Assembly: GCA_035512435.1 (NCBI GenBank)
Contig: DATKDX010000028.1
Coordinates: 13,871-77,870, forward strand
Direction of reading: 5' to 3'
Origin: Dehalococcoidia bacterium
Lineage (GTDB): Bacteria; Chloroflexota; Dehalococcoidia; SM23-28-2; RBG-16-64-32
Length of the DNA: 64,000 nt
Shown here: positions 3,757 to 57,305 of the stretch, piece after piece
Numbering within the stretch: position 1 is the first letter of the stretch
How the letters are laid out: each line of letters opens with the position of its first letter
Translations under genes and position numbers: made by a program
The notes under the pieces: generated by a model
Database searches by the model: none
What the model was told of the DNA's origin: nothing
The model's input: the letters and a program-made list of their open reading frames with translations, nothing else

Positions 3757-3778
3757 GTCTCCCTCTGCTCTCCTGCCG

Positions 3779-11231: not shown

Positions 11232-13294
<2,063 letters not shown>

Positions 13295-32826: not shown

Positions 32827-32891
32827 AGGCGTAACCTAGCGGTACTTTCGGCTGCGCGGTGGGCGCGGGCGGGCAGGGAGGGGAGGTAGTG

Positions 32892-34304: not shown

Positions 34305-34316
34305 GACGGTGCGCTG

Positions 34317-34781: not shown

Positions 34782-34811
34782 CGAAGCGCACATCCGGCAA
34801 CCTTGACGCGC

Positions 34812-34842
34812 ACGTTAAGGTGTGCGCATAATCAGGCTGCGC
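34812..34842 (+). promoter_or_regulatory. candidate sigma70-type promoter for ribBA (TTGACG-18 nt-CATAAT) with embedded GCGCAC/GTGCGC inverted repeat
   Basis: Hexamer match by eye, about 40 nt upstream of ribBA ATG 34881. Confidence 0.3.
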
Positions 34843-34880
34843 GTATCCAGCGAGAACGCGACAGTCTAAGGAGGGAAGCG

Positions 34881-36146
34881 ATGGCAAAGGCCAGGAAAAC
34901 CCCCGCGCAATCAACGCCCGTAGACGCTGAGCTGGAGAAGCCCGGCTTCTCAACGGTCGACGAGGCGATCGATGACTTCCGCCAGGGCAAGTTCGTGATC
35001 GTCGTCGACGACGACGAGCGCGAGAACGAGGGCGACCTAATCATCGCCGCTCAGCATGTGGACGAGGAAAAGATCGCGTTCATGCTGCGACACACCACCG
35101 GTATTATCTGTGTCCCCATGCCCGGAGACCTACTGGACGAGCTACGCATTCCGCTGATGGTAGGTAACAACCAGGCGCAGTACGGCACGGCTTTCACCGT
35201 CTCCGTCGATGCGCGAAAGGGGGTGACGACGGGCGTCTCGGCGGCTGACAGGGCGCGCACGATCCAGGTGCTGGCCGACCCGGACGCGGAGCCTGTGGAC
35301 CTGGTGATGCCGGGTCACATCTATCCCCTGCGCGCCCGTGACGGCGGAGTGCTGGTGCGAGCTGGCCACACCGAGGCCACGGTGGACCTCTGCCACCTGG
35401 CAGACTTTGAGCCGGTGGGCGTCCTCTGCGAGTTGATGGACCAGGACGGCAAGATGATGCGCGGCGCGGCGCTGGTGGACTTCGCGAAAGGGCATGACCT
35501 GAAGATCATCGGCATCAACCAGCTGATCCGCCACCGCGTAATGCGGGAGCGGCTTGTGGAGAAGGTGGCGGTGACCACGCTCCCGACGAACTGGGGCGAG
35601 TTCACGCTCCATGCCTATCGCTCCGACATCGACACTGATGAGCACGCGGCGCTGGTTATGGGCGACATCACCACCGACGAGCCGGTCCTCATCCGCGTCC
35701 ACTCGCAGTGCGTGACAGGCGACGTTTTCGGCTCCATGCGCTGTGACTGCGGCGAGCAGATCGATCTGGCGCTGAGCCACATCGCCCAGGAAGGCCGTGG
35801 CGTCCTCGTATACATGAGGCAGGAGGGCCGCGGCATCGGCTTCCACAACAAGATCCGGGCCTACTCGCTGCAGGAGACAGAAGGCCTCGACACCGTGCAG
35901 GCCAACGAAGCGCTGGGTTTCGCCGCCGACCGCCGCGACTACGGCATCGGCATGCAGATCCTGCTGGACCTGGGCCTGACCAGAGTGCGCCTGCTGACGA
36001 ACAACCCGCAGAAGCGCGCCGGTATCGAGGGCTACGGTATCGACGTCGTGGAGCGCGTCCCCATCCAGGCGGTGCCCAACCCGCACAACTGGAAGTACCT
36101 GGAGACGAAACGGGACAAGCTGGGCCACTTCATCGACATGCCCTAG
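34881..36146 (+). CDS. ribBA: bifunctional 3,4-dihydroxy-2-butanone-4-phosphate synthase / GTP cyclohydrolase II
   Basis: RibB region (RENEGDL, TVDLC) plus RibA region (CDCGEQ zinc site, GRGIG). ATG 34881 follows an AAGGAGGG RBS; the track ORF 34803 is a 5' extension. Confidence 0.9.
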   Translation: MAKARKTPAQSTPVDAELEKPGFSTVDEAIDDFRQGKFVIVVDDDERENEGDLIIAAQHVDEEKIAFMLRHTTGIICVPMPGDLLDELRIPLMVGNNQAQYGTAFTVSVDARKGVTTGVSAADRARTIQVLADPDAEPVDLVMPGHIYPLRARDGGVLVRAGHTEATVDLCHLADFEPVGVLCELMDQDGKMMRGAALVDFAKGHDLKIIGINQLIRHRVMRERLVEKVAVTTLPTNWGEFTLHAYRSDIDTDEHAALVMGDITTDEPVLIRVHSQCVTGDVFGSMRCDCGEQIDLALSHIAQEGRGVLVYMRQEGRGIGFHNKIRAYSLQETEGLDTVQANEALGFAADRRDYGIGMQILLDLGLTRVRLLTNNPQKRAGIEGYGIDVVERVPIQAVPNPHNWKYLETKRDKLGHFIDMP

Positions 36147-37102
36147 CGCTTGTCTGCCTCTGGATCGCGGAGGACGAGGCTGCGCGCGGTGCGCAGCACC
36201 TTGACGTGCAGCGGCACCTTCATTCCTTCCATCGCCGGCTGCTTGACGACCGTCTTCGGCACCTCGGCGAACGAGCGTGAGGCGGCCGCTCCGATGAGCA
36301 GTATCTGGGCGCTGATGAAGATCCAGAAGAGGAATGCGGCTACGGCGCCAAGCGAGCCGAAGACGACATCGAAGTTGCCGAAGTTCTGCACGTAGAAGCC
36401 GAAGAGGTTCTTTACCGCTTCGAAGGCGACGGCGGCGATCACCGCGCCGGGGACAGCGCCCATTAGCGATCCGCCGCGAGCCGGCACGATCCAGTATAGG
36501 AAGGTGAAGGCGACGAAGGAGAAGACGAAGGGAATCGCGATGATGCCCAGCGTCCAGACCCAGCCCAAGTCCTCCGAAAGTTGGCCGATACCCTCCAGGT
36601 CTTCGCTGCGCGCCTGCGCCACGCGCAGGACGGCCGTGACGGCGATTGAGGCGCCGAAGAAGAGTCCTGCACCGAGGACTAGCGAGAGGTCGATCGCCTT
36701 GGCCTGGACGAATGGGCGCCCCAGATCCTGCGCGTCGTAGATGATGTTGAGCGAGCGGCGGATGGCACCGAACATGCCGCTGGCCGACCACATCATACCG
36801 ATGAGACCGATGATACCCAGGGCCGGTCCGGTGTTGCCGGAGACGGCGTCGACGGCCTCTTCCACGTTGGCGCGTCCTTCGCCCTGGTCCAGTGGCACGA
36901 CGTCCATTACTTCATTGACGAGGTCCTGCTGGGCGGCCTCGTGGAGGAAGATGCCGACGGCGGCGACGAGGAAGATAAGCAGCGGGAAGATGGAGAAGAG
37001 GACGTAGTAAGCGATGCCGGCCGCGAGCTGGCCGCAGTTGTTGGCGGTGTAGCGTTTGACGGTCGCCACAGCCCACTCCTTGAGGAAACGAAAGGACAAC
37101 AT
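36143..37102 (-). CDS. YihY/BrkB family membrane protein
   Basis: 319 aa with about six TM segments and a YihY-like N-terminus (GQLAAGIAYYVLFSIFPLL). Confidence 0.75.
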   Translation of the reverse strand: MLSFRFLKEWAVATVKRYTANNCGQLAAGIAYYVLFSIFPLLIFLVAAVGIFLHEAAQQDLVNEVMDVVPLDQGEGRANVEEAVDAVSGNTGPALGIIGLIGMMWSASGMFGAIRRSLNIIYDAQDLGRPFVQAKAIDLSLVLGAGLFFGASIAVTAVLRVAQARSEDLEGIGQLSEDLGWVWTLGIIAIPFVFSFVAFTFLYWIVPARGGSLMGAVPGAVIAAVAFEAVKNLFGFYVQNFGNFDVVFGSLGAVAAFLFWIFISAQILLIGAAASRSFAEVPKTVVKQPAMEGMKVPLHVKVLRTARSLVLRDPEADKR

Positions 37103-37200
37103 CTGCCCTCTACTCTAACCGGGTCATGTTAAATTCTCCGCCGAATCTACCGCGGCGGGTTGCAAAAACTTGGCAATCAACACCAATGCTCACGCCAAGC

Positions 37201-37231
37201 TTGACGCTAACTGCCGGCCTTTGCTTATACT
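37201..37231 (+). promoter_or_regulatory. candidate promoter (TTGACG ... TATACT) upstream of HTH-PASTA gene
   Basis: Hexamers by eye. The 19-nt spacer is slightly long. Confidence 0.25.
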
Positions 37232-37259
37232 GCAATCCGTGCATTCACAGGAGGTCGAT

Positions 37260-37916
37260 ATGTCCTCGTCGCCCCTTGGGGAGACGTTAAGGAAAGCCCG
37301 CCTCGAGAGAAGTATCACCTTTGAAGATGCCGAGAGAGTAACCCGCATCCCGCGTAAGTACCTCGAAGCACTCGAACTCGAGAATTTCGGAATCCTACCA
37401 GCCCCGGTCTACGCCAGGGGTTTCTTGCGCTCGTACGCTAGTTACCTCGGCCTCGACCCGGGGTCGCTGATGCCTTTCTTTCCGGTCGGTCACGTGGACG
37501 AGCCAGCGCTGGAGCAACTCCCGGAGATGTCGGAGCCACGCACCTGGAACCCCAGCAGCCTCATCGCTGTCAGCGTCATCGGAGTGCTCATCATGCTCGT
37601 CGTCGCGCTCTACGCGCTGGGCAGCGAGAGCAGCGCTAACTTCAGCGAAGACACCTCCGGCGGCACGGAGAACAACGGGGCTGTTCCAGCCGCTGACGCA
37701 CCCGCGGAGGGCGGCGGCAACGCCCAGACGCTGCCCGATCTTACCGGTCTGACGCTCGCCGAGGCGGTAGCCATCGTTGAGGAAAATGGCGCCACCTGGC
37801 TGGCCGTGCCGACGACAGAAGGGGACGTGCCGGCGGGACAAGTCATCTCCTTCTCGCCGGGTGAAGGCACCGTCGTCGGCCCCGGCGACGTCGTTTCGAT
37901 TACCGTAAGCCAGTAG
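37260..37916 (+). CDS. RodZ-like XRE-family HTH membrane protein with C-terminal PASTA domain
   Basis: An N-terminal HTH (LGETLRKARLERSITFEDAERVTRIP), one TM segment, and a C-terminus matching the PASTA consensus (LPDLTGLTLAEAVAIVEENG...GQVISFSPGEGTVVGPGDVVSITVS). ATG 37260 follows a GGAGG RBS. Confidence 0.65.
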   Translation: MSSSPLGETLRKARLERSITFEDAERVTRIPRKYLEALELENFGILPAPVYARGFLRSYASYLGLDPGSLMPFFPVGHVDEPALEQLPEMSEPRTWNPSSLIAVSVIGVLIMLVVALYALGSESSANFSEDTSGGTENNGAVPAADAPAEGGGNAQTLPDLTGLTLAEAVAIVEENGATWLAVPTTEGDVPAGQVISFSPGEGTVVGPGDVVSITVSQ

Positions 37917-44281: not shown

Positions 44282-46504
44282 CTACTCGACAACGCCGCTG
44301 AGCGGCGGCAGACCCACGTGCGTCTCCAGGATGTTGCGCAGCATCGGGGCCACCTGCGAGGAGCCCGATTCACCCTCTTCCAGCACGCCCAGCGCCACCA
44401 GGCTCGGCGCGCTGCGGTTGGCGTAGGCCGCGAAGAACACGTGGTCGGAGCCTTCGGCCAGGTCTTCGGCCGTGCCCGACTTGCCGGCGACATCGAGGGG
44501 TGTGCCCACCCACGCCTGGTACGACGTGCCACCTGTGCTCTGCGTCACCAGGTAGAGGCCGTGGCGGATCGAGTCCAGCGTCTCCTGCGAGACGGGCAGC
44601 GGGCGGATCTCCTCCGCCTGGTACTCCTGCACGGCGACGCCACCGCCCGCCGAAGGCTCGCCGACGCGCCAGATGAGCAATGGCTTCTTGAGCACCCCAC
44701 TGCTCGCGATCGCCGAGTAAGCGTTGGTGATCTGGATGGGCGTGGCCAGCACATATCCCTGGCCGATGCCCATGTTGACCGCGTCGCCGCGGAACCACGC
44801 CTCGCCGACGTTCTCTTCCTTCCACGCCGGATCTGGCACCACGCCCGCCGCCTCTTCCATCCCGATGCCGGTGGGTTCCCCGTAGCCGAACTGGCGGATG
44901 AAGTCGGGGAATATCTGCTCGTCGATCTCGTCCATGCGCTTGGCCAGGTCGAAGAAGACCGGGTTGCAGGAGGCCATGAGCCCCTCGGCCGGCGTCAGGA
45001 AGCCGCGGTCGACCGTCTGCCAGTTCTTCTGCGGGAAGTCTTCGCCCAGGCCCGTCCAGACAGGCACGCAGTGGAAGGTGGAGCCTGTCGTGTAGTCCGT
45101 GGTCTCGACGCCGCCCGCCATCGTAACGACCTTGAACGTCGAGCCCGGCGGGTACTCTGCCAGCAGGGCGCGGTTGAGGAACGGCAAGTTCGGGTTGTTG
45201 AAGAGGTTCGTCGCCTCCTCGTCCGTCAGGCCGCGGATGAAGGAGTTCGGGTTGAAGCGGGGGTACGACGCCATGGCCACGACGGAGTTGTCCCGCGGGT
45301 CCATGACGACGACGGCGCCAACCTTGTCGCCAAGCTGTGCTTCCGCCTGCTTTTGCACGTTGAGGTCGATCGTCAGCCAGACGTCCTTGCCGGGCGTGGA
45401 CGGCGCCTCGGCGATGGTGGCGGTGATAACACCCTCGGGGCTGACGGCGGCGAGGAGGCCGCCGCGCGTGCCCGCCAGGGTGTCCTGGTACTGGCTCTCC
45501 AGGCCGGCCGAGCCGATAAGGTCGCCCGGCTGGTAACCCTCGTACGTCGGGTCCTGCAAGTCATCCTCGGTGACCTCCGACATGTAGCCGATAACGTGCG
45601 CCGCCGAGTCCTCGTGCGGGTAGAAACGCTGCGTGTCCTCCCGCACGATGATGCCGAGGTCCACCATGTCGCGGAACTTCTGAACGTCTTCGTCGGTCGT
45701 AGTGTAGGGCAGTGCGCGCACCGGCGTGAAGTAGTAGGACGGCTGGGTGTCGGCCAGGTCGAAGATCGGCCGGATCTCGCCGTCCGACGCGCCCAAGCCC
45801 GCGGCCAGCGCGGCGATGGCCGCTTCGCGGTCCGTCAGGTAGTCGACGACGAAGCCGATGACAGGCAGGTCGGCGTCCAGCGCCAGCGGCTCGCCGTTGC
45901 GATCGTAAATGGTGCCGCGGCGGGGCGAGCGCGGGAAGAAGTTGACGAGCGACTCATCGTCCAGCTGGCTGAAGTACAGCGATGGCGTCCAGACCACCCG
46001 CCACTCATCGCGCTGGACGGGCTCGCCGCCTTCCTCCGTCGCGGGCAACGTGACGGTCTCGCGGACCAGCGGTAACGCGTTCTCTTCCGGGACGTCACCA
46101 AAGAACTCGGTCTTGAAAGTGACCTTAAAGGGCACCTCGATGACGCCCTCCGGCAAGTCCTCGCCGCCCAGGATCTCCGTCTCGGCGGGAGAGCCGGTGC
46201 CGGTAAGCAGGAAGTCGAACCCGGTGATCGTCGCCGTCTCCTTGATCGCCTCGTAGCGGCTGACGAACGTCTCTTCGTCAACCGCCGCGCGCGATTCGGT
46301 GGCGACCAGTTCATACATCGCCTCGAACTGGTCCTGGCCCCAAAGCTCCAGCCAGCGGGTCGCGGCGTCGTCGGGCGTGCGGGGGCGCTCGGTCGGGCCG
46401 TTGTCGCCGTTATCACTGCCATCACACGCCGCCGCGAGGACGGCGAGCGCCAGGAGCAGCGGTACTAACAGGGTGCGTTGTGGTATCACGTTCCTGAAGA
46501 CCAT
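44282..46504 (-). CDS. class B penicillin-binding protein (transpeptidase) with lipoprotein signal and N-terminal NTF2-like domain
   Basis: AACDG lipobox. STFK active-site serine motif (GSTFKVVT), SxN, and KSGTA (KTG) motifs. Confidence 0.85.
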   Translation of the reverse strand: MVFRNVIPQRTLLVPLLLALAVLAAACDGSDNGDNGPTERPRTPDDAATRWLELWGQDQFEAMYELVATESRAAVDEETFVSRYEAIKETATITGFDFLLTGTGSPAETEILGGEDLPEGVIEVPFKVTFKTEFFGDVPEENALPLVRETVTLPATEEGGEPVQRDEWRVVWTPSLYFSQLDDESLVNFFPRSPRRGTIYDRNGEPLALDADLPVIGFVVDYLTDREAAIAALAAGLGASDGEIRPIFDLADTQPSYYFTPVRALPYTTTDEDVQKFRDMVDLGIIVREDTQRFYPHEDSAAHVIGYMSEVTEDDLQDPTYEGYQPGDLIGSAGLESQYQDTLAGTRGGLLAAVSPEGVITATIAEAPSTPGKDVWLTIDLNVQKQAEAQLGDKVGAVVVMDPRDNSVVAMASYPRFNPNSFIRGLTDEEATNLFNNPNLPFLNRALLAEYPPGSTFKVVTMAGGVETTDYTTGSTFHCVPVWTGLGEDFPQKNWQTVDRGFLTPAEGLMASCNPVFFDLAKRMDEIDEQIFPDFIRQFGYGEPTGIGMEEAAGVVPDPAWKEENVGEAWFRGDAVNMGIGQGYVLATPIQITNAYSAIASSGVLKKPLLIWRVGEPSAGGGVAVQEYQAEEIRPLPVSQETLDSIRHGLYLVTQSTGGTSYQAWVGTPLDVAGKSGTAEDLAEGSDHVFFAAYANRSAPSLVALGVLEEGESGSSQVAPMLRNILETHVGLPPLSGVVE

Positions 46505-48123: not shown

Positions 48124-48538
48124 GTTAGACCTCCGTTGCTCTCACCCGTATCCACATCCCGTCGGGGCGATTGCGCCTTATTTCACAACTAGAGTACATA
48201 CCCGACCTTAAGTGCAATCGCGATCGCCGTCAAGTGTTCGCGGTGCTCTTCCGGGCGAATTGCTTTCGGTGTGCCCAGGCGCACGGTCGGCAATCTGTAC
48301 ATCTCGTAAAGAGACGTGCTACCTGACGCTTTGTTACATAGGGCCCTCGAGGGAGAGGGGTACCCCCTCTCCCCGCGAGCCCAAAGGGAGGTGTGCTTGG
48401 AGAACGGAGGCCGGCCCAGCGACGCCCAGACTTTATCGACCTGGCCGGCTCACCATTCATCCAGGCTTCAGTGTGCCAGCGTGTCTTTACGCCGGTGCTA
48501 TCGGCGGGTCACGCGCGCGTTAACACGACGTTTCGCGC

Positions 48539-48946
48539 TCACAGCAGAGATTCCGTGCGGAGCGTCGAGTAGCTCGCTATCAACTCGAAGTCGGAGTCTC
48601 GGTGAACAAGGGTAGCATCGTGACTCATAGCATTCGCCGCGATGACGAGGTCAGGTATTGAAGCGACGATGCCGGCAGCGCGGAGCCTGGACCCGAGGTC
48701 GGCAGCAATCGACCACGTTGCATCGTCGAGGGGGAGGGGCTCGAGCCCTGAGAGCGCTTGTTCCGTAGTCACGCGTTCATCATCTCGACGCACGCCCAAC
48801 AGAACCTCGAGTTTGATAATGTCGTTCATGCTGGAGACGCCGGAAGCGATCAACACGGCAAATCGCGCCGTGAACGACTCTGGCGGATTGCGGCGGAACG
48901 CGACGATCCAGACCGACGTGTCGAGAAGATAGGCGTGCGAAGCCAT
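48539..48946 (-). CDS. vapC: type II toxin VapC (PIN domain)
   Basis: LLDTSVWI N-terminal Asp and C-terminal PIN acidic residues. It overlaps the antitoxin by 1 nt. Confidence 0.75.
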   Translation of the reverse strand: MASHAYLLDTSVWIVAFRRNPPESFTARFAVLIASGVSSMNDIIKLEVLLGVRRDDERVTTEQALSGLEPLPLDDATWSIAADLGSRLRAAGIVASIPDLVIAANAMSHDATLVHRDSDFELIASYSTLRTESLL

Positions 48947-49158
48947 CAGGTGCGCGGCTTACCGCGCATCTCTTCCAGTTCTACCTGCGTCATATCCATA
49001 ATCCCGCTGCCGATCAGTGACAAAATCTTCTGTCGGCGTCGGATATTGATGTACTCCTTTAGAGCCTCCTCAATCACGGCTTTTTTCGTATGGACCTCCG
49101 CCAAATCGAGGGCGGACTCGATCAGCTTCTCGTCCAGATCCAGTGTTGTGCGTGCCAT
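48946..49158 (-). CDS. vapB: type II antitoxin VapB family
   Basis: 70 aa (MARTTLDLDEKLIESALDL...KKAVIEEALKEYI), the typical VapB (DUF2191-like) pattern. Confidence 0.65.
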   Translation of the reverse strand: MARTTLDLDEKLIESALDLAEVHTKKAVIEEALKEYINIRRRQKILSLIGSGIMDMTQVELEEMRGKPRT

Positions 49159-49208
49159 ATATGCCTCCGTTCTATGTATTCAGAGTATGCATTGATACGC
49201 CATAGCCG

Positions 49209-49475
49209 TCAAGACCGCAGCGAATGCGGCACCCCGTGCGCAGCCAGCCGACGCCCCCACGACGCCGCGGTGTCCTCCGCGAACATCTCGGCGATCACCG
49301 CCGCCAGCGGCCCGTCGGCCGGGGCGTCCTTCGCCGCCGTCCACGCGCCTTCGTAGGCCACTTCCGGCCGCCCGAGGCAAACGGCCAGCGCGTGCCAGTG
49401 CTCAGCGTTCTCGATCACGATCGTGATCTCGCCTTCAGCACAGGCGTAGGTGCGCCTGGCCGCCGACTCCGCCAT
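49209..49475 (-). pseudogene. internal fragment of a family III (CaiB/BaiF) CoA-transferase
   Basis: 88 aa (TIVIENAEHWHALAVCLGRPE...TAASWGRRLAAHGVP) matches only the middle of an ~400-aa CoA-transferase. No flanking N- or C-terminal parts are present. Confidence 0.35.
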
Positions 49476-49494
49476 GCCTCTTGTCTCGTACCAC

Positions 49495-50307
49495 TTACGA
49501 CATCACCCGCCCGCCATCGATGTTGATGGCCTGGCCGGTGATATAGGCGCCGCCGGGACCCGCAAGGAAGGCGCAAAGCTCACCGACCTCCTCCGGATAG
49601 CCTTCGCGCTTGAGAGGCGTTGTCGACATCACCATGTCGCGGATGGGGCCGGGCGCCGTCACGTCGTCCATGCGCGATGTGCCGATGAGTCCCGGGCAGA
49701 CCGTGTTGACGTTGATGTTGTGCGGCGCCATCTCCAGCGCCAGCACCTGCGTAAGCAGCATGACGCCCGCCTTGCTCGCGCTGTACGCAGAAGACGTCGG
49801 CATCCCCTGCCGGCCGAGGATCGAGCTGATGTTGATTATCCTCCCGCCCTCGCCATGGGCGACCATGCGGGCCCCGATCCCCTTCGTCACGAGGAACGTG
49901 CCCGTCAGGTTAAGCTCGATGACGCGGCGCCACTCATCCTCCGCGAGGTTGATGACAGGGACGCGGTCGTTGCCACGCCCGGACGCCGCGTTGTTGACCA
50001 GGATGTCGACGCGGCCGAACTCACGCATCGTCTCCTCGGCCAGGCGCTGGCAGTCCTCGCCCTTCGTCATGTCGGTTACCAGCGGCAGCGCGCGGCGGCC
50101 CATCTCCCGGATCTCATCAGCGACGGAATCGATGTCGCGCCAGCCTATCTCTTTCTCGGCGTCGGGGAAAGTGAACGGATCCCGACCGGAGCCGGTGATG
50201 ACGACGTCCGCGCCCGCCTTCGCCAGCGCCAGCGCGATATACCGCCCGATCCCCTTATGGCGCCCCGCGCCGGTCACGACTGCTACTTTGCCGTTAAGTT
50301 CGCTCAC
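49495..50307 (-). CDS. SDR family oxidoreductase
   Basis: TGAGRHKGIGRYIA cofactor-binding motif, NNAA, and YSASK catalytic motif. Confidence 0.85.
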   Translation of the reverse strand: MSELNGKVAVVTGAGRHKGIGRYIALALAKAGADVVITGSGRDPFTFPDAEKEIGWRDIDSVADEIREMGRRALPLVTDMTKGEDCQRLAEETMREFGRVDILVNNAASGRGNDRVPVINLAEDEWRRVIELNLTGTFLVTKGIGARMVAHGEGGRIINISSILGRQGMPTSSAYSASKAGVMLLTQVLALEMAPHNINVNTVCPGLIGTSRMDDVTAPGPIRDMVMSTTPLKREGYPEEVGELCAFLAGPGGAYITGQAINIDGGRVMS

Positions 50308-50407
50308 GTCGAAGTCCTCCCTCTAGTGCGCCGCAGTATACGAAACACCCCTCGCCTTTGCTATGATTGCGCGCGCAACCAACCGAATCGCCAGCAAGGG
50401 ACGCCCC

Positions 50408-50767
50408 ATGTCCGTGCAGAAGACCGTCGAAGACTACATCGCCGCCTGGAACGAAGAGGACGAGGCGAAGCGTGCCGATCTCATCGCCGGCTGCTGGGCA
50501 GAGTCCGGCACCTACACCGACCCCATGGCCGACGTTGCCGGCCGCGACGGGCTATCGCAGCTGATCGCCGGTTTCCACCAGCAGATGCCTGGCGCCCGCA
50601 TCAAAGTAACGACCGGCATCGACCAGCACCACGACCAGATCCGCTTCGGATGGGCGCTGCAAGGCGGTCAGGCGATCGAGGGCATCGACGTCGGCAGGCT
50701 CGATGGTGGCGGTAAGCTGCTCAGCATCGTCGGCTTCTGGGGCGCCAATCCGCCCGCCGCTTCGTGA
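50408..50767 (+). CDS. NTF2-like (SnoaL-like) family protein
   Basis: 119 aa from ATG 50408 (MSVQKTVEDYIAAWNEEDEAKRADLIAGCWAE...). Confidence 0.55.
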   Translation: MSVQKTVEDYIAAWNEEDEAKRADLIAGCWAESGTYTDPMADVAGRDGLSQLIAGFHQQMPGARIKVTTGIDQHHDQIRFGWALQGGQAIEGIDVGRLDGGGKLLSIVGFWGANPPAAS

Positions 50768-50840: not shown

Positions 50841-51221
50841 ATGCCGGCAGACCCACCTTGCACGTTCTGCGACTTCTCGACCGGCGCGTCGCCTGTGCCC
50901 AAAGCCTACGAAGACGACCTCGTCTTCGCGGTCGACATTCCGGAAGGGCATCCGGTCAACCGCGGCCCCGTGCACTTCATGGTCATCCCTCACCGCCACA
51001 TCCCCAACGCGCTGGGCCTGACGCCCGACGACGGCGAACTGGCGGCGCGTCTCTTCACCGTCGCGGCGGACCTGGCCCGTCAGAAAGGCGTCGCCGAGTC
51101 AGGCTTCCGCCTCCTGACCAATACCGGGCCTGACGCCAACCAGAACGTCATGCACTTCCATCTGCACTGCATCGGCGGCCGCTACCTAGGCTCAGAAGCA
51201 GCGTATCAGAGCGAGCCCTAG
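50841..51221 (+). CDS. HIT family protein
   Basis: CTFC zinc motif plus histidine triad HFHLHCIGG. Confidence 0.8.
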   Translation: MPADPPCTFCDFSTGASPVPKAYEDDLVFAVDIPEGHPVNRGPVHFMVIPHRHIPNALGLTPDDGELAARLFTVAADLARQKGVAESGFRLLTNTGPDANQNVMHFHLHCIGGRYLGSEAAYQSEP

Positions 51222-52435
51222 CCCCGCCGAGCCGCGCGCCCCGGCAGCGTCGGCGACGCCTCAACCGGCGTCAACGAGATCAGCGCATCGTCTTCGGCCG
51301 CCGGCTCCGCGCCTAGAGCGGCGAGGTCGATAGTCTCGCCGTAGCGCTCTTCGATGACCTTTGCACCTTCCTGCAGCAACGCTGTCATGAACTGGTCCTC
51401 GGAGACCGTGCGCACCACCTCGCCCTTGCGGAAGATGGCGCCGCGTCCTTTGCCGGCAGCCAGGCCGATATCGGCGTCGCGGGATTCGCCCGGGCCGTTG
51501 ACCACACAGCCCATCACCGCCACTGTGATCGGCTTGCCGATCGTCTTGAACGTCTCTTCCACCTTGTTGGCCAGCGGGATGAGGTCCACCTCGATGCGGC
51601 CGCAAGTCGGGCAGGCGACGATCGTTGGCCCGCGAAAGCGGATGTTCAGCGACTTCAGGATGTCCCAGCAGACGGGCAGCTCCTCGGCCGGGTCAGCCGC
51701 AAGCGAAACGCGGATCGTGTCGCCGATGCCTTCCGACAGCAGGATGCCGATGCCAATGGCGGAGCGCACGGTGCCAGCGCCCGGCGTGCCTGCCTCCGTC
51801 ACACCGAGGTGCAGCGGGTAGGGCACGCGCGTCGCCATCTCGCGATAAGCGGCCAACATCGTCGGCACGTCGAACGCCTTGAGCGAGATCTTGATGTCCT
51901 CAAAGCCCATGTCTTCCAGCACGCCGATCTCCCAGAGCCCGGCGTCCACCATGCGACGCTCCTTGCTGGGCGGGAGTTCGCCGTCCTTGAGCGCCGGGAT
52001 CGGCGGTAGCGAACCCTCGTTCACGCCGATGCGGATCGAGATGCCGCGCGCCTTGGCGGCCGTCACCACTTCGCGCACCTTACCTTCGTCACGGATGTTG
52101 CCCGGGTTCAGGCGCAGGCCGTGGATACCGCCCGCGATGGCGGCAAGCGCCAGGCGGTGGTCGTAGTGGATGTCTGCGATCAGCGGAACCGGCGTGGCCT
52201 TCACGATGTCCGGCACCGCTTCCGCTGCCCGCTTGTCTGGTACCGCAATGCGTACGATTTCGGCGCCGTCGTCTGCCAGTCTCGCAATCTGCTCGATCGT
52301 AGCCTTCGCGTCCGCCGTGTCCGTATTCGTCATCGTCTGCACGACAACAGGCGCGTCGCCGCCGACCTGCACGTCGCCGACGTGCACGGGGCGCGAAACG
52401 CGGCGCGGGCTCAGGGGTTTCGGTTCATCCGTCAC
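51218..52435 (-). CDS. ispG: 4-hydroxy-3-methylbut-2-en-1-yl diphosphate synthase (flavodoxin)
   Basis: GcpE pattern (VQVGGDAPVVVQTMTNTDT) and C-terminal Cys cluster (CPTCGR...GCVVNGPGE). Confidence 0.9.
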   Translation of the reverse strand: MTDEPKPLSPRRVSRPVHVGDVQVGGDAPVVVQTMTNTDTADAKATIEQIARLADDGAEIVRIAVPDKRAAEAVPDIVKATPVPLIADIHYDHRLALAAIAGGIHGLRLNPGNIRDEGKVREVVTAAKARGISIRIGVNEGSLPPIPALKDGELPPSKERRMVDAGLWEIGVLEDMGFEDIKISLKAFDVPTMLAAYREMATRVPYPLHLGVTEAGTPGAGTVRSAIGIGILLSEGIGDTIRVSLAADPAEELPVCWDILKSLNIRFRGPTIVACPTCGRIEVDLIPLANKVEETFKTIGKPITVAVMGCVVNGPGESRDADIGLAAGKGRGAIFRKGEVVRTVSEDQFMTALLQEGAKVIEERYGETIDLAALGAEPAAEDDALISLTPVEASPTLPGRAARRG

Positions 52436-52508: not shown

Positions 52509-52748
52509 ATGAAGCGCACAACACTGAGCCTACCTGAAGAACTCATCGCCTTCCTGAAACGCGAGGCCCGCCGTCGCGATACCTCCGTGTCGCAGATTGC
52601 GAGAGAGGCAATCGAAGAGCGATTCACAAGGAAGCGCGGTGCGCGCAGATTGGGATTCATTGCGTTGGGTCGTAGCGGTTTCAAGACAACTGCGGCAGAC
52701 ATGGAAGAACTCATGATGCGGGAGTGGACACCTGATCGCGATCGTTGA
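52509..52748 (+). CDS. ribbon-helix-helix (CopG-like) antitoxin
   Basis: 79 aa (MKRTTLSLPEELIAFLKREARRRDTSVSQIAREAIEE), an RHH pattern. Confidence 0.65.
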   Translation: MKRTTLSLPEELIAFLKREARRRDTSVSQIAREAIEERFTRKRGARRLGFIALGRSGFKTTAADMEELMMREWTPDRDR

Positions 52749-53142
52749 TGCGGGTCCAATATTTGCCGCTGCTGACGTTGAAGACAAGGACCACCGCAGG
52801 TGCGCAGCCGTTTTCGACGACTTCAATCTTCAATTCGTTTTCCCGGCGCTAATCGTCGCCAAAGCTGCTTACTTCATCGCCACGCGACTTGGTGCCGCTG
52901 CCGAAGCCGCACTTCTGCGGACACTGAGCGATCAAGACGTTGAGCTTCCTGCCCCCGAGGATTGGGAGAAGATTGCACGCCTTGTCGAAAAGTACGCCGA
53001 TTTCCCACTCGGCGCGGCAGATGCATCCATAGTTGTACTCGCGGAGCGCCTCGGGACAGACCTTATCGTGACGCTGGACCGCCGCCACTTCGGCGCTTTA
53101 CGCACGGTCAGCGGCGGCACATTCCGGATCCTGCCCGACTAG
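52732..53142 (+). CDS. PIN-domain toxin (VapC-like), with no ATG/GTG/TTG anywhere in frame
   Basis: The frame is open from 52717 to TAG 53140-53142 and encodes LIAIVDAGPIFAAAD...DASIVVLAERLGTDLIVTLDRRHF (PIN acidic residues). The only plausible initiators are CTG 52732 or ATC 52735/52741. It is absent from the ORF track. Confidence 0.45.
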   Translation: MIAIVDAGPIFAAADVEDKDHRRCAAVFDDFNLQFVFPALIVAKAAYFIATRLGAAAEAALLRTLSDQDVELPAPEDWEKIARLVEKYADFPLGAADASIVVLAERLGTDLIVTLDRRHFGALRTVSGGTFRILPD

Positions 53143-54500
53143 AACAGGCTGTCGCCGGCGATCAGCCGCGCCACGTCGAAGTACGTGATTACCACCGCCA
53201 TCGTCAGGATCAGCACCAGTCCCACGAGGTGCACGATCGCCTCTTTCTCGGGAGCGATGCGTTTCCCTCGCCGCGCGATCTCGATTAGCACGAAGGTGAT
53301 GCGCCCACCGTCCAGCATCGGGAGCGGCAGCAGGTTGATGATGCCCAGGTTCAACGAGAGCAGCGCCGCCAGCTCCAGCAGCGGTTTCCACCCCGATTCC
53401 TTGACCACCTCACCCGTCGTCTGTGCGATGCCGACCGGGCCCGCGAAGTCCGGCCCGCCCCCGCCGTGGAACATCGCTTCGATCTGCTTCTGGAAGAGGA
53501 TCAGCGTGTCCCACGTCGCCTCCCAGCCCTTCGGGAACGACTCGAAGAAGCCGTGCTTCTCCGTCTCCGTGAAGCCGTACTGGTTACCGATGCCGATGCC
53601 GATCGGCCCCTGTTCGATGCTCAGGTTGGTGCCCGGCTCCAGGTAGTCCGGGTCGGGCAGGCCCGCCGCGTCGCGCACGGCGTCTCGCGAAACGTCCAGC
53701 CGGTTGGCGACAACCTCGACGCTATCGCCCCGGCGTACACGGTATTCGACAACGCCCTCGTCTGTCTCGATCAGGAGGACGTCGTCAACTTCAAGCGCGG
53801 TGTCGATCTCCGCCACTGCGCGTACTGTCCCCTCGGACACGGCCAGCAATTCGGCGACCGAGCGTACGTCGTCACCCTCCTGCACGGTGTATTCGATGGG
53901 CGGCGGGTTCCAGCGCGACTGCGCCTGTAGCGTTATCGTCTCGACTTCGCCGTCGTCGTTGGTGCGCCTAATCGTCAAGTTGACGCGCTCACCCTGGTTC
54001 AGACGGCTTTCGCGGATGGCCTCCAGGCTGTTCTTCACCTCGTAGCCGTTGATTGCTACGATTATGTCGCCTGGCTCAAGACCCGCCTGTTCCGCCGGCG
54101 ATTCCGGCGCCACGCCGGTAATCATCGCCGGGCCCGTCGGGACCTCCCGCGGCAGCATAAAGACCGCCGCGAATAGCAGGATCGGCAGCATCAGGTTGAG
54201 CACAGCGCCGGATCCCAGCACGATCAGCCGCTTCCAGGCAGCCGCTGCCGCCAGGCTTTGCGGGTCAGATGGGTCTTCTTCGCCCAGCAGGCGTACGAAG
54301 CCGCCCAGCGGGATCCAGTTCAGCGAATAAATCGTGCCGCGCCAGGTGAATCCCCACGCCCGCGGCGGATAGCCGATGCCCGCCTCCAGGACCTTGATAC
54401 CAAACATCTTGGCGGTCGCATAGTGGCCCGCCTCGTGGATGACAATAAGCGCCACCAACATCCCGACAAAAGGGAGAACGTAGTTAATCAGGATGTCCAA
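53139..54500 (-). CDS. rseP: RIP metalloprotease RseP (site-2 protease, M50) with PDZ domain and LysM-like insertions
   Basis: HEAGHY zinc motif, a PDZ domain (GLEPGDIIVAINGYEV), two LysM-like segments (YTVQEGDDVRSVAELLAVS...; YRVRRGDSVEVVANRLDVSRDAVRDAAGL...TNLSI), and C-terminal LDGG. Probable TTG start 54500 after a GGGAGAGGGG RBS. Confidence 0.85.
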   Translation of the reverse strand: MDILINYVLPFVGMLVALIVIHEAGHYATAKMFGIKVLEAGIGYPPRAWGFTWRGTIYSLNWIPLGGFVRLLGEEDPSDPQSLAAAAAWKRLIVLGSGAVLNLMLPILLFAAVFMLPREVPTGPAMITGVAPESPAEQAGLEPGDIIVAINGYEVKNSLEAIRESRLNQGERVNLTIRRTNDDGEVETITLQAQSRWNPPPIEYTVQEGDDVRSVAELLAVSEGTVRAVAEIDTALEVDDVLLIETDEGVVEYRVRRGDSVEVVANRLDVSRDAVRDAAGLPDPDYLEPGTNLSIEQGPIGIGIGNQYGFTETEKHGFFESFPKGWEATWDTLILFQKQIEAMFHGGGGPDFAGPVGIAQTTGEVVKESGWKPLLELAALLSLNLGIINLLPLPMLDGGRITFVLIEIARRGKRIAPEKEAIVHLVGLVLILTMAVVITYFDVARLIAGDSLF

Positions 54501-54659
54501 TGTGGCCCCTCTCCCGCGCCGTGCGCATGGGGGCATGGGAGCATGAGAACATCATCGATCGCGACGCTCTCAAGCTCTCTTGCTCTCATGCTGATTCCTT
54601 TCATTGTCTGTTCAACGCCTCATTAAGTACTACGTTTCGCTGACCGCCATAAGTCTCGT

Positions 54660-55811
54660 TTACGCCTTCGCCGCCACCCAGTCCTCCGCGAATGCGCGCG
54701 CCCGCTGGTCCGCCTCGATGACTTCTTCCAGCGACGGGTTCGCGATGTGGCTGTCCGCGCCGAGAGCGTCCTCGATCACGCGCGCGATGTCCTGGAACGC
54801 GATGCGGCCCGCCAAAAAGTGCTCGACGGCGACTTCATCAGCGGCGGCCAGCACTGCCGGCGCGGTTCCGCCTTTGCGGCCCGCTTCCAGCGTCAGCGCC
54901 AGGCACGGGTATCGTTTACGGGTCGGGATGCCGAATGTCAGGTTGCCTATCATCTTTAAGTCCAGGCGGGGCACGTCCCCGCGCACGCGCTCCGGGTAGG
55001 TGAGCGCGCACTGTATGGGTAGACGCATGTCGGGCACGCCCAGTTGCGCCTTCACGGAGCCATCCGTGAACTCCACCAGCGAATGCACAATGCTTTCGCG
55101 GTGCAAAACGACCTCTATCTGCTCGTAAGGCACCCCAAAAAGCCAGTGCGCCTCAATGCACTCGAGGCCCTTGTTTAGCAACGTCGCGCTATCGACCGTG
55201 ATCTTCTTGCCCATCTGCCAGTTCGGGTGGCGCAGCGCCTGGGCGGCGGTCACCCGCTCCAGCTCGTCATCATCCAGGTCGCGTAGCGCCCCGCCCGACG
55301 CCGTGATAATCAGCCGGTCGATCGACGCTTTCTTCTCGCCCCAGAGGCACTGCCAGATCGCGGAGTGCTCGGAGTCAACGGGCCTCAGCTCGGCGCCGTA
55401 GCGTTTGGCTTCGGCGGTCATGATGTGGCCTGCCATCACCAGCACTTCCTTGTTGGCGATGGCGATTGCCTTGCCGGCCCGCGCCGCCGCCAGCGATGGC
55501 CCCAGCCCCGCCGCGCCCACCGTCGCCACTACGACGACGTCGACGTCGGGGTGCGAGGCCATGTCTTCCATAGTCGCCCAACGCCCCTTCACGTCGCCGC
55601 CATTCAGACTGCTCTGCAGGTAATCTTCTTCCTGGCCGGTGCTGACCAGCCGAGGGCGGAACTCTCGCACCTGCGCCTCCAGCGCCGTCACATTGCGGCC
55701 CGCCGCCAGCGCAATCACGTTAAAGCGCTCCGGCAGGGAGCGGATCACCTCCAGCGTTTGCTGGCCAATGGAGCCCGTGGAGCCGAGTACGGCGATACCG
55801 ATGCGTTTCAT
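54660..55811 (-). CDS. dxr: 1-deoxy-D-xylulose 5-phosphate reductoisomerase
   Basis: MKRIGIAVLGSTGSIG NADPH motif and Dxr core motifs. ATG at 55811. Confidence 0.9.
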   Translation of the reverse strand: MKRIGIAVLGSTGSIGQQTLEVIRSLPERFNVIALAAGRNVTALEAQVREFRPRLVSTGQEEDYLQSSLNGGDVKGRWATMEDMASHPDVDVVVVATVGAAGLGPSLAAARAGKAIAIANKEVLVMAGHIMTAEAKRYGAELRPVDSEHSAIWQCLWGEKKASIDRLIITASGGALRDLDDDELERVTAAQALRHPNWQMGKKITVDSATLLNKGLECIEAHWLFGVPYEQIEVVLHRESIVHSLVEFTDGSVKAQLGVPDMRLPIQCALTYPERVRGDVPRLDLKMIGNLTFGIPTRKRYPCLALTLEAGRKGGTAPAVLAAADEVAVEHFLAGRIAFQDIARVIEDALGADSHIANPSLEEVIEADQRARAFAEDWVAAKA

Positions 55812-55857
55812 CTCAAGAAGGGGGCTGGGCGCGGCGGAGCGGGTGAAAGAGGGCCGG

Positions 55858-56673
55858 TCAAGCGACAACCCATACCGCAAAGTAGTATACCAGCGGCACC
55901 GTGAACAGAAGGGAGTCCAGGCGGTCCAGGATGCCGCCGTGGCCCGGCACCAGCTCGCTCGTGTCCTTCACGCCGGCACCGCGCTTGATGTGCGACTCCG
56001 CCAGGTCGCCGAGCACTGCCGCCGCCGGTAGCATCGCCCCGAGAAGCACCGCTTCCCCCAGCGACATCGGCAGGCCCAGCACTTCAGCGATCACCACCAC
56101 GCTCAGCAAGCCCCCGATCAACCCCGCGACCGTCCCCTCCACCGTTTTGCCGGGACTGATGCGCGGCGCGATCTTCGTCTTGCCGATCAGCCGGCCGACT
56201 GCGTAGGCGAACGTGTCCGTGGCCCACGTCGCCAGGATTGGCAAGAAGACCCACTTGCCGTCGTCGTCCAGGTCGCGCAAGACGACCAGGTGCGCGCCAA
56301 GGAAGCCAACGTAGGCAATCGCCGCCGCGACGCTCAGTTGTGCCGGTGAAAACCGCACCGGGACACGCAACGCCATCACTGCCACGAGCGCCGCCGCCAC
56401 GACGATCGCCAGCGGCCCTGTCGCCGAGTCGTGCGCCTCCGGAAGCAGGACGACGAGCGCAATGGCGCCTACCGGTGCGAGGAGTTGCCAGGGGAACGGC
56501 CGCCACGGCGGCCGCGGCTCGCCGCCCTCCGCCGCCACCATCGCGCAGAACTCCAACGAAGCGATAATGAGAATCAGCGCGACGACGGCATCATAGACGG
56601 GACCGCCCAGCAGGATCAGCCCGATGATGATGGGGATGCCGATGGCGGCAGTGGCGAGACGCTGCGCCAGCAC
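55858..56673 (-). CDS. cdsA: phosphatidate cytidylyltransferase
   Basis: C-terminal CTP-transferase signature (TWATDTFAYAVGRLIGKTK...SPGKTVEG...SHIKR...KDTS..PGHGG). Confidence 0.8.
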   Translation of the reverse strand: MLAQRLATAAIGIPIIIGLILLGGPVYDAVVALILIIASLEFCAMVAAEGGEPRPPWRPFPWQLLAPVGAIALVVLLPEAHDSATGPLAIVVAAALVAVMALRVPVRFSPAQLSVAAAIAYVGFLGAHLVVLRDLDDDGKWVFLPILATWATDTFAYAVGRLIGKTKIAPRISPGKTVEGTVAGLIGGLLSVVVIAEVLGLPMSLGEAVLLGAMLPAAAVLGDLAESHIKRGAGVKDTSELVPGHGGILDRLDSLLFTVPLVYYFAVWVVA

Positions 56674-56723
56674 GCGCTATGTCCCTTTGGGCCGGGATGT
56701 GGCGATATGTGGACCCGTCGCCA

Positions 56724-57281
56724 CTAGATCGTCAGGACCTCTTGTTCCTTCTCCTCGCCCAGCCTGTCGACCTCCGCGACGTGGCGGTCAGTCACCTTCT
56801 GCAGTTCCCCTTCCGAACGGTGCAGTTCGTCCTGCGAGATCTCGTGGTCATGCTCGATTTTGCGCAGGTGGTCGTGAACGTCACGGCGGACGTTGCGGAT
56901 TGCCACTCGGGCCTCCTCCGTCCTGGCCTTCACCTGCTTCGCCAAGTCCTTGCGCCGCTCCTCCGTCAACGGTGGAATGGCCAGCCGGATGACGTTGCCA
57001 TCGTTGGAGGGGTTGAGCCCGATGTCCGACTTCTGGATCGCCTTCTCAATCTCGCCCAGCGCCGCCTTATCGAACGGCTGGATCATGATCATCTTGGGGT
57101 CAGGTGTGCTGATCGTGGCCAGCTGGTTGAGCGGCGTCGGCGCGCCGTAGTAGCTCACTTTCAAATGCTCAACCAGGCCCGTGCTGGCGCGTCCTGTGCG
57201 GATCGTCGCCAGCTCGTGGCGCAGCGCATCCACCGCGCCGTTCATGCGTGCGTCCGCGCTGCTGATCTGTTCCTGCACCAT
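56724..57281 (-). CDS. frr: ribosome recycling factor
   Basis: 185 aa, RRF pattern throughout. Confidence 0.9.
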   Translation of the reverse strand: MVQEQISSADARMNGAVDALRHELATIRTGRASTGLVEHLKVSYYGAPTPLNQLATISTPDPKMIMIQPFDKAALGEIEKAIQKSDIGLNPSNDGNVIRLAIPPLTEERRKDLAKQVKARTEEARVAIRNVRRDVHDHLRKIEHDHEISQDELHRSEGELQKVTDRHVAEVDRLGEEKEQEVLTI

Positions 57282-57305
57282 CTGCCTGTCTCCTCCGCTA
57301 CGGTC

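Follow-up and report, generated by a model that had tools for sequence, protein, structure and literature searches.

The window, i.e., the whole stretch of 64,000 nucleotides that was analyzed, carries on its minus strand the housekeeping RseP orthologue of a Dehalococcoidia bacterium, a group I site-2 intramembrane zinc protease. The gene order is rpsB-tsf-pyrH-frr-cdsA-dxr-rseP-(TA pair)-ispG, in which the upstream cluster of cdsA and dxr spans 54660..56673 (minus strand), and the cdsA-dxr-rseP neighborhood expected of an RseP gene is present. The order tsf-pyrH-cdsA-dxr-rseP-ispG is kept in 80 related loci, as far as their flanks reach. The features of the protein and of the surrounding genes are collected in Table 1. 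Rfam and tRNA scans of the window, aimed at the low-GC3 open reading frames that lack a Pfam match, found nothing.

Table 1. Positions of the rseP gene, its domains and motifs, and neighboring or wall-related genes in the window
Feature	Positions	Strand	Residues or sequence	Basis and remarks
rseP orthologue (group I site-2 protease, Peptidase M50)	53139..54500	minus	453 aa	TTG start at 54500; stop codon 53139-53141
HExxH zinc-binding motif, TM1	54423..54437	minus	HEAGH (H22-E23-A-G-H26)	read from sequence
Single PDZ	53916..54137	minus	~122-195	PDZ_6, 51.9-55.6 bits; PDZ-N equivalent
LysM module 1	53763..53900	minus	~201-246	AF2 fold and family profile; GDD not GDT
LysM module 2	53613..53756	minus	~249-296	
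[quoted passage not shown]
NxxPxxxLDG motif, TM3, third zinc ligand	53304..53336	minus	NLLPLPMLDGG (N389...D397-G398-G399)	read from sequence
cdsA	55858-56673	minus		Pfam; upstream gene of cluster
dxr	54660-55880	minus		Pfam; upstream gene of cluster
ispG (GcpE)	51218..52435	minus		Pfam GcpE, 457 bits; conserved downstream neighbor
Class B penicillin-binding protein (MecA_N + PBP_dimer + Transpeptidase)	44282..46504	minus		Pfam Transpeptidase 182.8 bits, PBP_dimer 104.7 bits
RodZ-like HTH_25 protein with C-terminal PASTA	37170..37916	plus		Pfam HTH_25 82.1 bits, PASTA 45.5 bits

Identity of the gene and its conventional core

The longest reading from the first ATG (53139..54536, minus strand) encodes 465 amino acids, and residue numbers in this frame are those of the 453-aa product plus 12. 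The TTG at 54500 was chosen as the start on the basis of homologue N-termini (consensus MDxxLxxxLPF) and the DNA; an earlier, sequence-only reading had called RseP at coordinates that agree exactly with this product. The database protein "RIP metalloprotease RseP [Dehalococcoidia bacterium]" is 100% identical to it. The curated equivalog model TIGR00054 scores 194.6 bits (cutoff, 147.55), Pfam Peptidase_M50 scores 174 bits on the 465-aa frame, and Foldseek with the whole model retrieves the solved RseP structures 9j83, 7w6x, and 7w6y with E values of 1e-23 to 1e-26 (8e-26 for 9j83). The enterobacterial model NF008046 is not reached (113 versus 477), as expected at phylum distance.

The four-TM catalytic core, the membrane-reentrant β-loop, the first PDZ, and the PCT region are all conventional. 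Across 56 homologues, H22, E23, and H26 of the HExxH motif, N389, P392, D397, and G398 of the NxxPxxxLDG motif, and Q297, G298, G301, and I302 of the QGxxGI motif are invariant. Between TM2 and TM3 lies a PDZ domain with the PCT region after it, as in other members of the family (at least one extracytoplasmic PDZ); Pfam PDZ_6 scores 51.9 bits at amino acids 139-191 in the 465-aa numbering, and this PDZ aligns to PDZ-N of 9j82, 7w6y, and 7w6x (Aquifex, Kangiella, and Escherichia coli RseP). Please note that the region had been called periplasmic in the sequence-only reading; the host belongs to the monoderm Chloroflexota, and "extracytoplasmic" is therefore the more accurate term.

With the PDZ-tandem enzymes, i.e., those of E. 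coli (7W6X), Kangiella koreensis (7W6Y), and Aquifex aeolicus (9J82/9J83), the protein shares the four-TM M50 core, both zinc-binding motifs, the reentrant β-loop, PDZ-N, the PCT region, and the cdsA/dxr gene context (E values of 1e-30 to 1e-55 by sequence and 1e-23 to 1e-26 by structure). It does not have their PDZ-N/PDZ-C pair: there is one PDZ here, PDZ-C is missing, and two LysM modules (~96 aa) stand between PDZ-N and the PCT region instead. Since single-PDZ RseP homologues exist, the lack of PDZ-C marks a variant and does not bar membership in the RseP family. One PDZ plus core is also the organization of the monoderm RseP of Bacillus subtilis (RasP, integrative model 9A6W) and of insert-less Dehalococcoidia forms, which lie at the same locus and are at most 75% identical outside the insert; in these single-PDZ forms "RWxPP" is joined directly to "QGPTGI", whereas in the 453-aa protein the LysM tandem is intercalated precisely at that junction.

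The LysM tandem at the PDZ-C position

Both segments are real LysM modules, as the sequence-only reading had proposed from their motifs. The HMM scan returns Peptidase_M50, a single PDZ, and Pfam LysM (PF01476) above its gathering threshold of 20.9 bits; over the whole protein the LysM hit covers two stretches with 32.7 bits (E, 7.4e-8). Module 2 alone is significant (28.5 bits; E, 1.4e-6); taken alone, module 1 of this protein scores 13.7 bits (E, 0.06), short of the threshold. At the family level, the profile of the insert finds solved tandem-LysM proteins at an E value of 1e-11 and spans both LysM domains of 4uz2, 4s3j, and 8i2e. The AlphaFold model (pLDDT ~92) contains two β-α-α-β units with both modules above 90, in agreement with the LysM fold of ~45 residues; in module 1 the elements are E202-205, H212-219, H223-229, and E241-246. 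Global Foldseek TM-scores of the tandem are low (~0.29).

The proposed pattern Y-x-V-x-x-G-D-[ST]-[LV]-x-x-[IV]-A is matched exactly by module 2 (YRVRRGDSVEVVA) and with one mismatch by module 1 (YTVQEGDDVRSVA). The GDT(L/V) motif that sits at the β1-α1 junction of LysM is recognizable in the tandem. In module 2 it reads GDSV, and relatives keep GD[TS] there (G in 39 of 48, D in 45 of 48, T or S in 43 of 48); in module 1 it reads GDDV at a place where relatives mostly have G[DE]T (T in 27 of 48), and this module departs from its family consensus, which has GDT, at several further positions as well. The LysM consensus carries a conserved Asn in the α2-β2 region (...LxxxNxL...). Its position is occupied by an invariant Ala in both modules (A230 and A279), and the "N-L" that had been noted in module 2 (GTNLSI) does not represent this Asn. 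The insert has a family signature of its own, AAG[LI], and this signature with its invariant Ala marks a divergent LysM subfamily in which the fold is kept. The α2-β2 loop, "AAGLPDPxxLxPG", hardly varies and is similar to its counterpart in the cortex-binding LysM of YaaH. Among the LysM-bearing forms the two modules are conserved to the same degree as the PDZ (43.6% and 49.8% versus 47.6%). LysM contacts peptidoglycan chiefly with its backbone and, in addition, with the Thr of GDT (PMC4083421), so the loss of the Asn is not disqualifying for glycan binding.

In the alignment to 9j82 and 7w6y, query residues 10-191 and 311-449 flank the PDZ-C position, and residues 303/311-449 (PCT region and TM3-4) match what lies past PDZ-C in these structures. 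The LysM tandem, with its ~96 aa about the size of PDZ-C, takes the place of PDZ-C between PDZ-N and the PCT region. The description of the segments as insertions into RseP thus needs amendment: the LysM segments are there, but they substitute for PDZ-C and are not an addition to an otherwise complete RseP. The closest known tandems are those of peptidoglycan hydrolases (Thermus thermophilus NlpC/P60, 4UZ2/4XCM; Bacillus SleL/YaaH, 4S3J/4S3K; Enterococcus faecalis AtlA, 2MKX; MltD), in which LysM is fused to a wall hydrolase, whereas the tandem described here lies inside an intramembrane protease. It differs from them further in the invariant Ala at the Asn position, a very short linker between the modules, and a relative orientation unlike that of 4UZ2, as seen in the low global TM-scores.

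Variation of the insert among Dehalococcoidia

The LysM tandem is widespread in Dehalococcoidia, neither rare nor confined to one genome. It was found in 100 of the 120 nearest protein clusters as well as in 28 of 80 fetched species loci, and the survey of related Chloroflexota that had been proposed as a check thus came out in favor of the insertion. The rseP family as such is carried by 568 GTDB species genomes of Dehalococcoidia. Orthologues at the same locus carry, in place of the tandem, a second PDZ, a Cys-rich module, a short insert of ~40 aa, or nothing, and Pfam LysM is absent from the orthologue insert types B, C, D, E, and F. The ~40-aa insert of SAR202-like forms, aligned to LysM with hhalign, reaches a probability of 16% over just 19 columns. 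Close orthologues without the tandem are 66-75% identical outside the insert, in agreement with a clean loss, and other close orthologues have the unrelated Cys-rich module at the insert position. The insert-less Dehalococcoidia proteins (360-377 aa) run directly from "RWxPP" into "QGPTGI", the tandem's insertion point. The idea that the insert-less 373-aa proteins are paralogues was rejected, as they occupy the same dxr-rseP-ispG locus. One insert-less and one LysM locus have flanks in common.

Bootstrapped neighbor-joining trees indicate a single gain of the tandem and, after it, at least three losses or replacements; the shared flanks just mentioned agree with this history. Most likely the common ancestor of a large Dehalococcoidia clade acquired the tandem at a structurally permissive position, and its descendants later deleted it or swapped it for unrelated modules on several occasions.

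The architecture had been put forward as undescribed. None of the literature searched describes LysM in a site-2 protease, and to this extent the claim stands; PF01476 is, however, already tagged in public databases for ~80 of the 120 nearest clusters (~80 of the 100 insert-carrying close homologues have the precomputed hit). What is new is the missing description of the LysM-RseP architecture, not its detection.

Possible roles of the tandem and rival explanations

Dehalococcoidia were until 2023 long held to lack peptidoglycan, the synthesis of which is ancestral in the class and kept in basal orders (PMC10284905). The class B penicillin-binding protein gene in the window indicates that the organism builds peptidoglycan, which is presumed to be the LysM ligand, and together with the RodZ-PASTA gene this gene makes the presence of a wall ligand plausible. 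Among cultured members of the class, Tepidiforma species have proven peptidoglycan. No wall genes were seen in the wider flanks of one insert-less (type F) locus and one type A locus, and tblastn of the window penicillin-binding protein against all related loci gave no match; this gene is not syntenic with rseP elsewhere, so that the missing match speaks neither for nor against a wall. Two loci bear the label SAR202, the name of a lineage for which loss of peptidoglycan has been reported; both are without the LysM tandem, a correlation between tandem and wall that stands on one window and these two loci.

Judging from the family, the core would work like RseP: the predicted activity is cleavage, inside the membrane, within the TM segment of type II proteins (anti-sigma factors and signal-peptide remnants) whose outer domain has been trimmed by a site-1 protease. 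Solved RseP structures place the two PDZ domains as a clam-shell lid over the substrate entry hole, excluding bulky untrimmed substrates, and this PDZ tandem moves relative to the TM domain (PMC11864173). By analogy, the PDZ and the LysM tandem most likely form the lid over the PCT region and the substrate entry. With somewhat less certainty, the conserved motifs of the tandem suggest putative binding of a GlcNAc-containing glycan, i.e., the lineage's own peptidoglycan, which would tether or position the lid, and with it the protease, where wall and membrane meet or where wall is being made; contact with the wall might in addition modulate substrate access. On balance we lean toward this combined reading, an RseP orthologue with an RseP-like core and a PDZ-LysM lid, in which the tandem that replaced PDZ-C serves wall binding or tethering. 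Two sequence features speak against wall binding, i.e., the invariant Ala in place of the canonical Asn and the degenerate module 1 of this protein (13.7 bits).

The clean loss of the tandem, or its exchange for a Cys-rich module, in close orthologues means that core RseP function does not require the module, which is possibly merely structural. It is conceivable, if somewhat doubtful, that the tandem is a compact and rigid filler for the PDZ-C half of the lid, without glycan binding and with regulation as in a two-PDZ RseP. Its exact PDZ-C position and similar size, the Ala in place of the Asn, the repeated loss, and the range of contents that same-locus orthologues tolerate there (a 40-aa insert, a Cys-rich module, a second PDZ, or no insert at all) would all fit a filler. 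A spacer, however, would not be expected to keep GD[TS] and the α2-β2 loop, which contact the ligand in characterized LysM, among the best-conserved positions of the insert; the backbone-mediated mode of glycan binding takes weight from the missing Asn, and genes for wall synthesis are present in the host. An early proposal for PDZ domains was that they bind substrate stubs or partner proteins. The divergent tandem, with its own AAG[LI] signature and standing in for a peptide-binding PDZ, could by that token bind a substrate stub, an adaptor, or a site-1 protease instead of glycan, which we regard as very improbable: its closest relatives in sequence and structure are all glycan-binding LysM of wall hydrolases, and no conserved partner gene was found near rseP in the neighborhoods of the related loci. 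That the segments are linker or degenerate PDZ with chance motifs deserves hardly any credence. The sub-threshold score of module 1 alone and the low global TM-scores could be cited for it, but the Pfam score of module 2, the match of the family profile to tandem-LysM structures, and the fold of the model effectively refute it.

A stronger form of wall coupling would make the tandem a built-in wall sensor, in which binding and release of peptidoglycan, nascent strands, or muropeptides moves the PDZ-LysM lid and so gates proteolysis, the PDZ-C position being a plug-in socket; cleavage of an anti-sigma factor could then respond to wall damage without, or alongside, the site-1 protease. A tie between such cleavage and wall status had been suggested in the sequence-only reading. 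[quoted passage not shown] We nevertheless consider it unlikely, as no anti-sigma/ECF sigma pair adjoins rseP in the Pfam annotation of the window, and close relatives with otherwise identical loci have lost the module, which argues against its being an indispensable trigger; this weakens the coupling idea somewhat. If the sensor reading were true, a single protein would connect wall status with the release of sigma factors in Dehalococcoidia, in place of or in addition to the site-1 protease, and the module swaps (LysM, Cys-rich, second PDZ, none) would define a socket for input domains of site-2 proteases.

Should the tandem bind peptidoglycan, as in the tethering reading that we prefer, it would be the first wall-coupled intramembrane protease within the literature searched and a new marker of wall-bearing Dehalococcoidia; should it not bind glycan, it would still show plainly that a LysM fold has been co-opted to build part of the lid. 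A parallel is the sporulation system SpoIVFB-SpoIVFA-BofA of B. subtilis, where the activity of a site-2 protease is tied to a wall-related extracytoplasmic domain. SpoIVFB, a CBS-domain-type enzyme, is inhibited by BofA and SpoIVFA, and the wall-related domain (LytM/M23-like) sits on the separate inhibitory partner SpoIVFA. In the protein described here, by contrast, the putative wall-binding module is part of the protease polypeptide of a PDZ-type RseP, and homology between the two systems is not implied.

The role of the PDZ domains in RseP-type site-2 proteases has long been debated, i.e., ligand sensor versus passive size filter. Within one class and at one conserved locus, orthologues differ at the PDZ-C position, which is empty in some and in others holds a LysM tandem, a second PDZ, a short insert, or a Cys-rich module, and these natural domain swaps are ready chimeras for testing the part that this position plays in substrate gating.

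RseP core with one PDZ and two LysM folds

The product of window 53139-54500 is RseP, because it exceeds the cutoff of the NCBIfam RseP equivalog TIGR00054 (194.6 bits; cutoff 147.55), matches Pfam Peptidase_M50 (174 bits), carries the HExxH and NxxPxxxLDG motifs, lies in the classical cluster rpsB-tsf-pyrH-frr-cdsA-dxr-rseP...ispG, and yields an AlphaFold2 model (56 sequences; mean pLDDT 86, pTM 0.75) that matches solved RseP of Aquifex, E. coli, and Kangiella (Foldseek E 1e-23 to 1e-26). A database protein, "RIP metalloprotease RseP [Dehalococcoidia bacterium]", is 100% identical to it. A real product of 453 aa, exactly the span assigned by the sequence-only reading, follows from the TTG at 54500 and from the N-termini of 55 homologues, whose consensus is MDxxLxxxLPF.

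Features discussed in the text. Positions are window nucleotides, or residues of the 453-aa RseP; Pfam coordinates on the 465-aa ORF run 12 higher
Feature	Position	Strand	Details
rseP ORF	54536 to 53139	minus	465 codons
HExxH	residues 22-26		invariant across homologues
LysM module 1	residues ~201-246		beta-alpha-alpha-beta unit in full-length and insert-only models
LysM module 2	residues ~249-296		beta-alpha-alpha-beta unit in full-length and insert-only models
NxxPxxxLDG	residues 389-399		invariant across homologues
alpha-glucan cluster	1330-13294	minus	contiguous, GlgE pathway type
PutA	13337-16336		next after alpha-glucan cluster
dnaN	27134-28672	minus	
low-GC3 ORF	35142-36791		549 aa
RodZ-like protein, C-terminal PASTA	37170-37916	plus	HTH_25 82 bits, PASTA 45.5 bits
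class B PBP	44282-46504		Transpeptidase 182.8 bits
low-GC3 ORF	49450-50715		421 aa
RHH antitoxin ORF	52509-52748	plus	79 aa, Pfam RHH_1 28.4 bits
PIN-domain ORF	52717-53142	plus	~141 aa, Pfam PIN 36.8 bits
frr	56727-57281	minus	

The same reading had proposed two LysM-like segments behind a single PDZ, and the HMM scan and AlphaFold model it named both bear this out. Beside Peptidase_M50, Pfam LysM matches the protein in two stretches with 32.7 bits (E 7.4e-8; threshold 20.9). Scanned alone, module 2 scores 28.5 bits (E 1.4e-6) and module 1 only 13.7 bits (E 0.06; threshold 20.9); module 1 in the window genome has GDD in place of GDT and deviates at several further positions from the consensus of the family. 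A profile built on the ~105-residue insert of 36 homologues, compared with solved structures, matched LysM proteins only: YaaH (4s3k) best at 1.1e-11, Thermus NlpC/P60 (4uz2) at 6.6e-9 with both of its LysM domains covered, and further SleL, Ecp6, CEBiP, LytE, and MltD. At family level, both modules are clearly LysM. The insert-only model (pLDDT 91.9) has only tandem-LysM proteins as top Foldseek matches, with a marginal E (6e-4) and a low global TM (0.29) that we attribute to a different inter-module orientation. The significant LysM match and the modeled LysM fold effectively rule out additional PDZ or linker.

By sequence alignment with solved two-PDZ RseP, residues 10-191 correspond to the stretch spanning TM1 to PDZ-N, and residues 303/311-449 to that spanning the PDZ-C-terminal region (PCT) to TM4; the only counterpart of PDZ-C (Aquifex 208-271, Kangiella 225-278) is the single PDZ, as a secondary match. 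Since PDZ-C lacks a counterpart of its own and the flanks align on both sides, the LysM tandem (~96 aa) takes the place that PDZ-C holds in these two proteins. The RseP core is thus joined to a single PDZ, and a pair of LysM folds stands where PDZ-C would be. The sequence-only reading did not recognize this arrangement as described, and full-text literature searches likewise found no description of a LysM-bearing site-2 protease. Source annotations of the LysM-bearing proteins read only "RseP", "site-2 protease", or "regulator of sigma E protease"; automatic Pfam annotation has already picked up the LysM, i.e., PF01476 is in the precomputed annotation of ~80 of the 120 nearest clusters.

Distribution, variant types, and history of the site

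A survey of relatives, also suggested by that reading, found the same insertion in 100 of the 120 nearest 90%-identity clusters; the other 20 miss exactly the tandem stretch, with "RWxPP" directly joined to "QGPTGI". A one-genome-per-GTDB-species scan gave 568 genomes with relatives, of which the best 80, a sample biased toward the query, were fetched, all being Dehalococcoidia or Chloroflexota MAGs. Among these 80 the region after PDZ-N was sorted into six types: tandem LysM (A, 28 loci), a ~100-aa four-Cys module after QGPTGI that has no Pfam match (B, 18), another insert not assigned to a family (C, 2), a ~40-aa insert (D, 24, two of them SAR202-labelled), a second PDZ (E, 5), and nothing (F, 3). 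The order tsf-pyrH-cdsA-dxr-rseP-ispG is constant at all 80 loci as far as the flanks extend; the types are therefore orthologues, and paralogy is ruled out. When 1.84 billion representatives were searched exhaustively with a profile, 11,322 RseP-like proteins came up at E<=1e-30, and only 7 of the best 150 bear LysM modules, the traceable ones being Dehalococcoidia.

In a single-gene neighbor-joining distance tree (322 core columns, variable region left out, 200 bootstraps), A+B+C+F form one clade (98.5%), with D and E outside. Type A has 0% support as monophyletic: type F nests with the window's own subclade (98%), type C nests in the other A subclade (85%), and type B, itself monophyletic (100%), groups with that subclade plus C (93.5%). 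One type F locus has the same genes on its flanks as the closest type A locus, consistent with a recent clean deletion of the tandem. The simplest history on this tree is a two-PDZ ancestor, one gain of the LysM tandem, and at least three losses or replacements.

Type B modules (L025, L026, L028, L029, L032-L039, and L041-L046; rseP at ~6001-7400 in full-length loci) stand in place of LysM and conserve cysteines in the pattern "DECGV...C..G..FGF..L[ST]AAxC...C" in 18 genes; this may be an undescribed extracytoplasmic domain. SAR202-like orthologues (L047, L049-L055, L057-L062, L064, L065, L067-L069, L072-L075, and L078) have 385-402 aa, or 428 aa in L072, and share the ~40-aa insert "VVExVxDPxxxxSLxEARxxNxxLxVGDxx" at the same site, with a weak likeness to the C-terminal LysM half that might reflect a LysM remnant (hhalign 16% probability over 19 columns) and a sub-threshold Pfam NusA_N match. 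Type F orthologues (372-377 aa; e.g., proteins P0036, P0037, and P0068, and locus L079, rseP 6001-7122) carry AGSAVCQGEGRPDQC, a small loop with two Cys that comes shortly past QGPTGIRIHNLV, by a few residues, and that the LysM forms do not have. Four longer homologues (P0127, P0128, P0270, and P0273; 564-582 aa; those of known source are Dehalococcoidia) combine the PDZ and tandem LysM ectodomain with a ~115-aa, PDZ-containing insertion between the membrane-reentrant beta-loop ("GGFVxLTGEE") and TM2, and have no additional hydrophobic segment; RseP topology would place this extra PDZ, unusually, in the cytoplasm.

Possible wall binding or passive replacement of PDZ-C

By analogy with the family, the window RseP would cut trimmed type II membrane proteins within the membrane, with PDZ and LysM tandem forming a lid. 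We infer with moderate confidence that the tandem binds wall glycan and thereby tethers or positions the protease; that wall contact gates proteolysis is speculative. The main rival has the tandem replace PDZ-C as a passive structural element; in its favor, the tandem is dispensable in close relatives and the site freely takes other modules. Mean pairwise identity among the 48 LysM-bearing sequences comes to 43.6% for LysM-1 and 49.8% for LysM-2 versus 47.6% for the PDZ (PCT 53.6%, TM core ~71%), so the constraint on the modules matches that on the part of the ectodomain whose function is accepted. They retain the GD[TS] motif; in the AtlA LysM, the Thr of this motif touches the MurNAc lactyl group and other binding is mainly via the backbone (PMC4083421). 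The near-invariant alpha2-beta2 loop of module 2, AAGLPDPxxLxPG, is similar to that of YaaH. Where canonical LysM has Asn, both RseP modules have an invariant Ala, marking a distinct LysM subfamily.

The window organism very probably makes peptidoglycan, because genes for a class B PBP and for a RodZ-like HTH_25+PASTA protein lie in the window; the RodZ-like protein is a second membrane protein there fused to a wall-binding module. Peptidoglycan has been shown in cultured Tepidiforma (Palmer et al. 2023, PMC10284905), and its synthesis is inferred to be ancestral in Dehalococcoidia, persisting in orders 1-9 and disappearing a single time, in the ancestor of orders 10-25, i.e., Dehalococcoidales, SAR202, and the marine radiation (PMC10284905). 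Both SAR202-labelled loci are without the tandem, which agrees with this loss as a two-point correlation only. The main value of these proteins lies in a natural series of domain swaps at the site of PDZ-C and in a possible link between protease and wall, in a class whose peptidoglycan was demonstrated only recently.

Other observations in and near the cluster

A VapBC-like toxin-antitoxin pair (52509-53142), on the strand opposite to rseP, lies in the ~700 bp that separate the rseP stop from ispG. Its PIN ORF has no ATG/GTG/TTG near the N-terminus, and its stop codon overlaps that of rseP convergently. As rseP and ispG abut or overlap in most related loci, the pair is a local insertion into the conserved cluster. 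Upstream of the cluster in the closest relatives, L082 and L083 (191-3700), a duplicated DUF433 + PIN_10 pair around an IS1595-family transposase is another such toxin-antitoxin/IS insertion. In close relatives L081-L083 the order is tsf-pyrH-frr-uppS-cdsA-dxr-rseP; the window has cdsA immediately after frr (compared region 56674-57305), with no uppS homologue detectable within the 64 kb. Several long ORFs at ~29000-36800 and 48200-50715 have third-position GC of 0.57-0.67 versus ~0.8 elsewhere and gave no Pfam, Rfam, or tRNA match; they may be foreign or non-coding DNA. No recognizable dnaA adjoins dnaN. The alpha-glucan cluster comprises GH57/DUF3536, a GlgB-like branching enzyme, MalQ, a TreS-maltokinase fusion (1132 aa), and GlgE.
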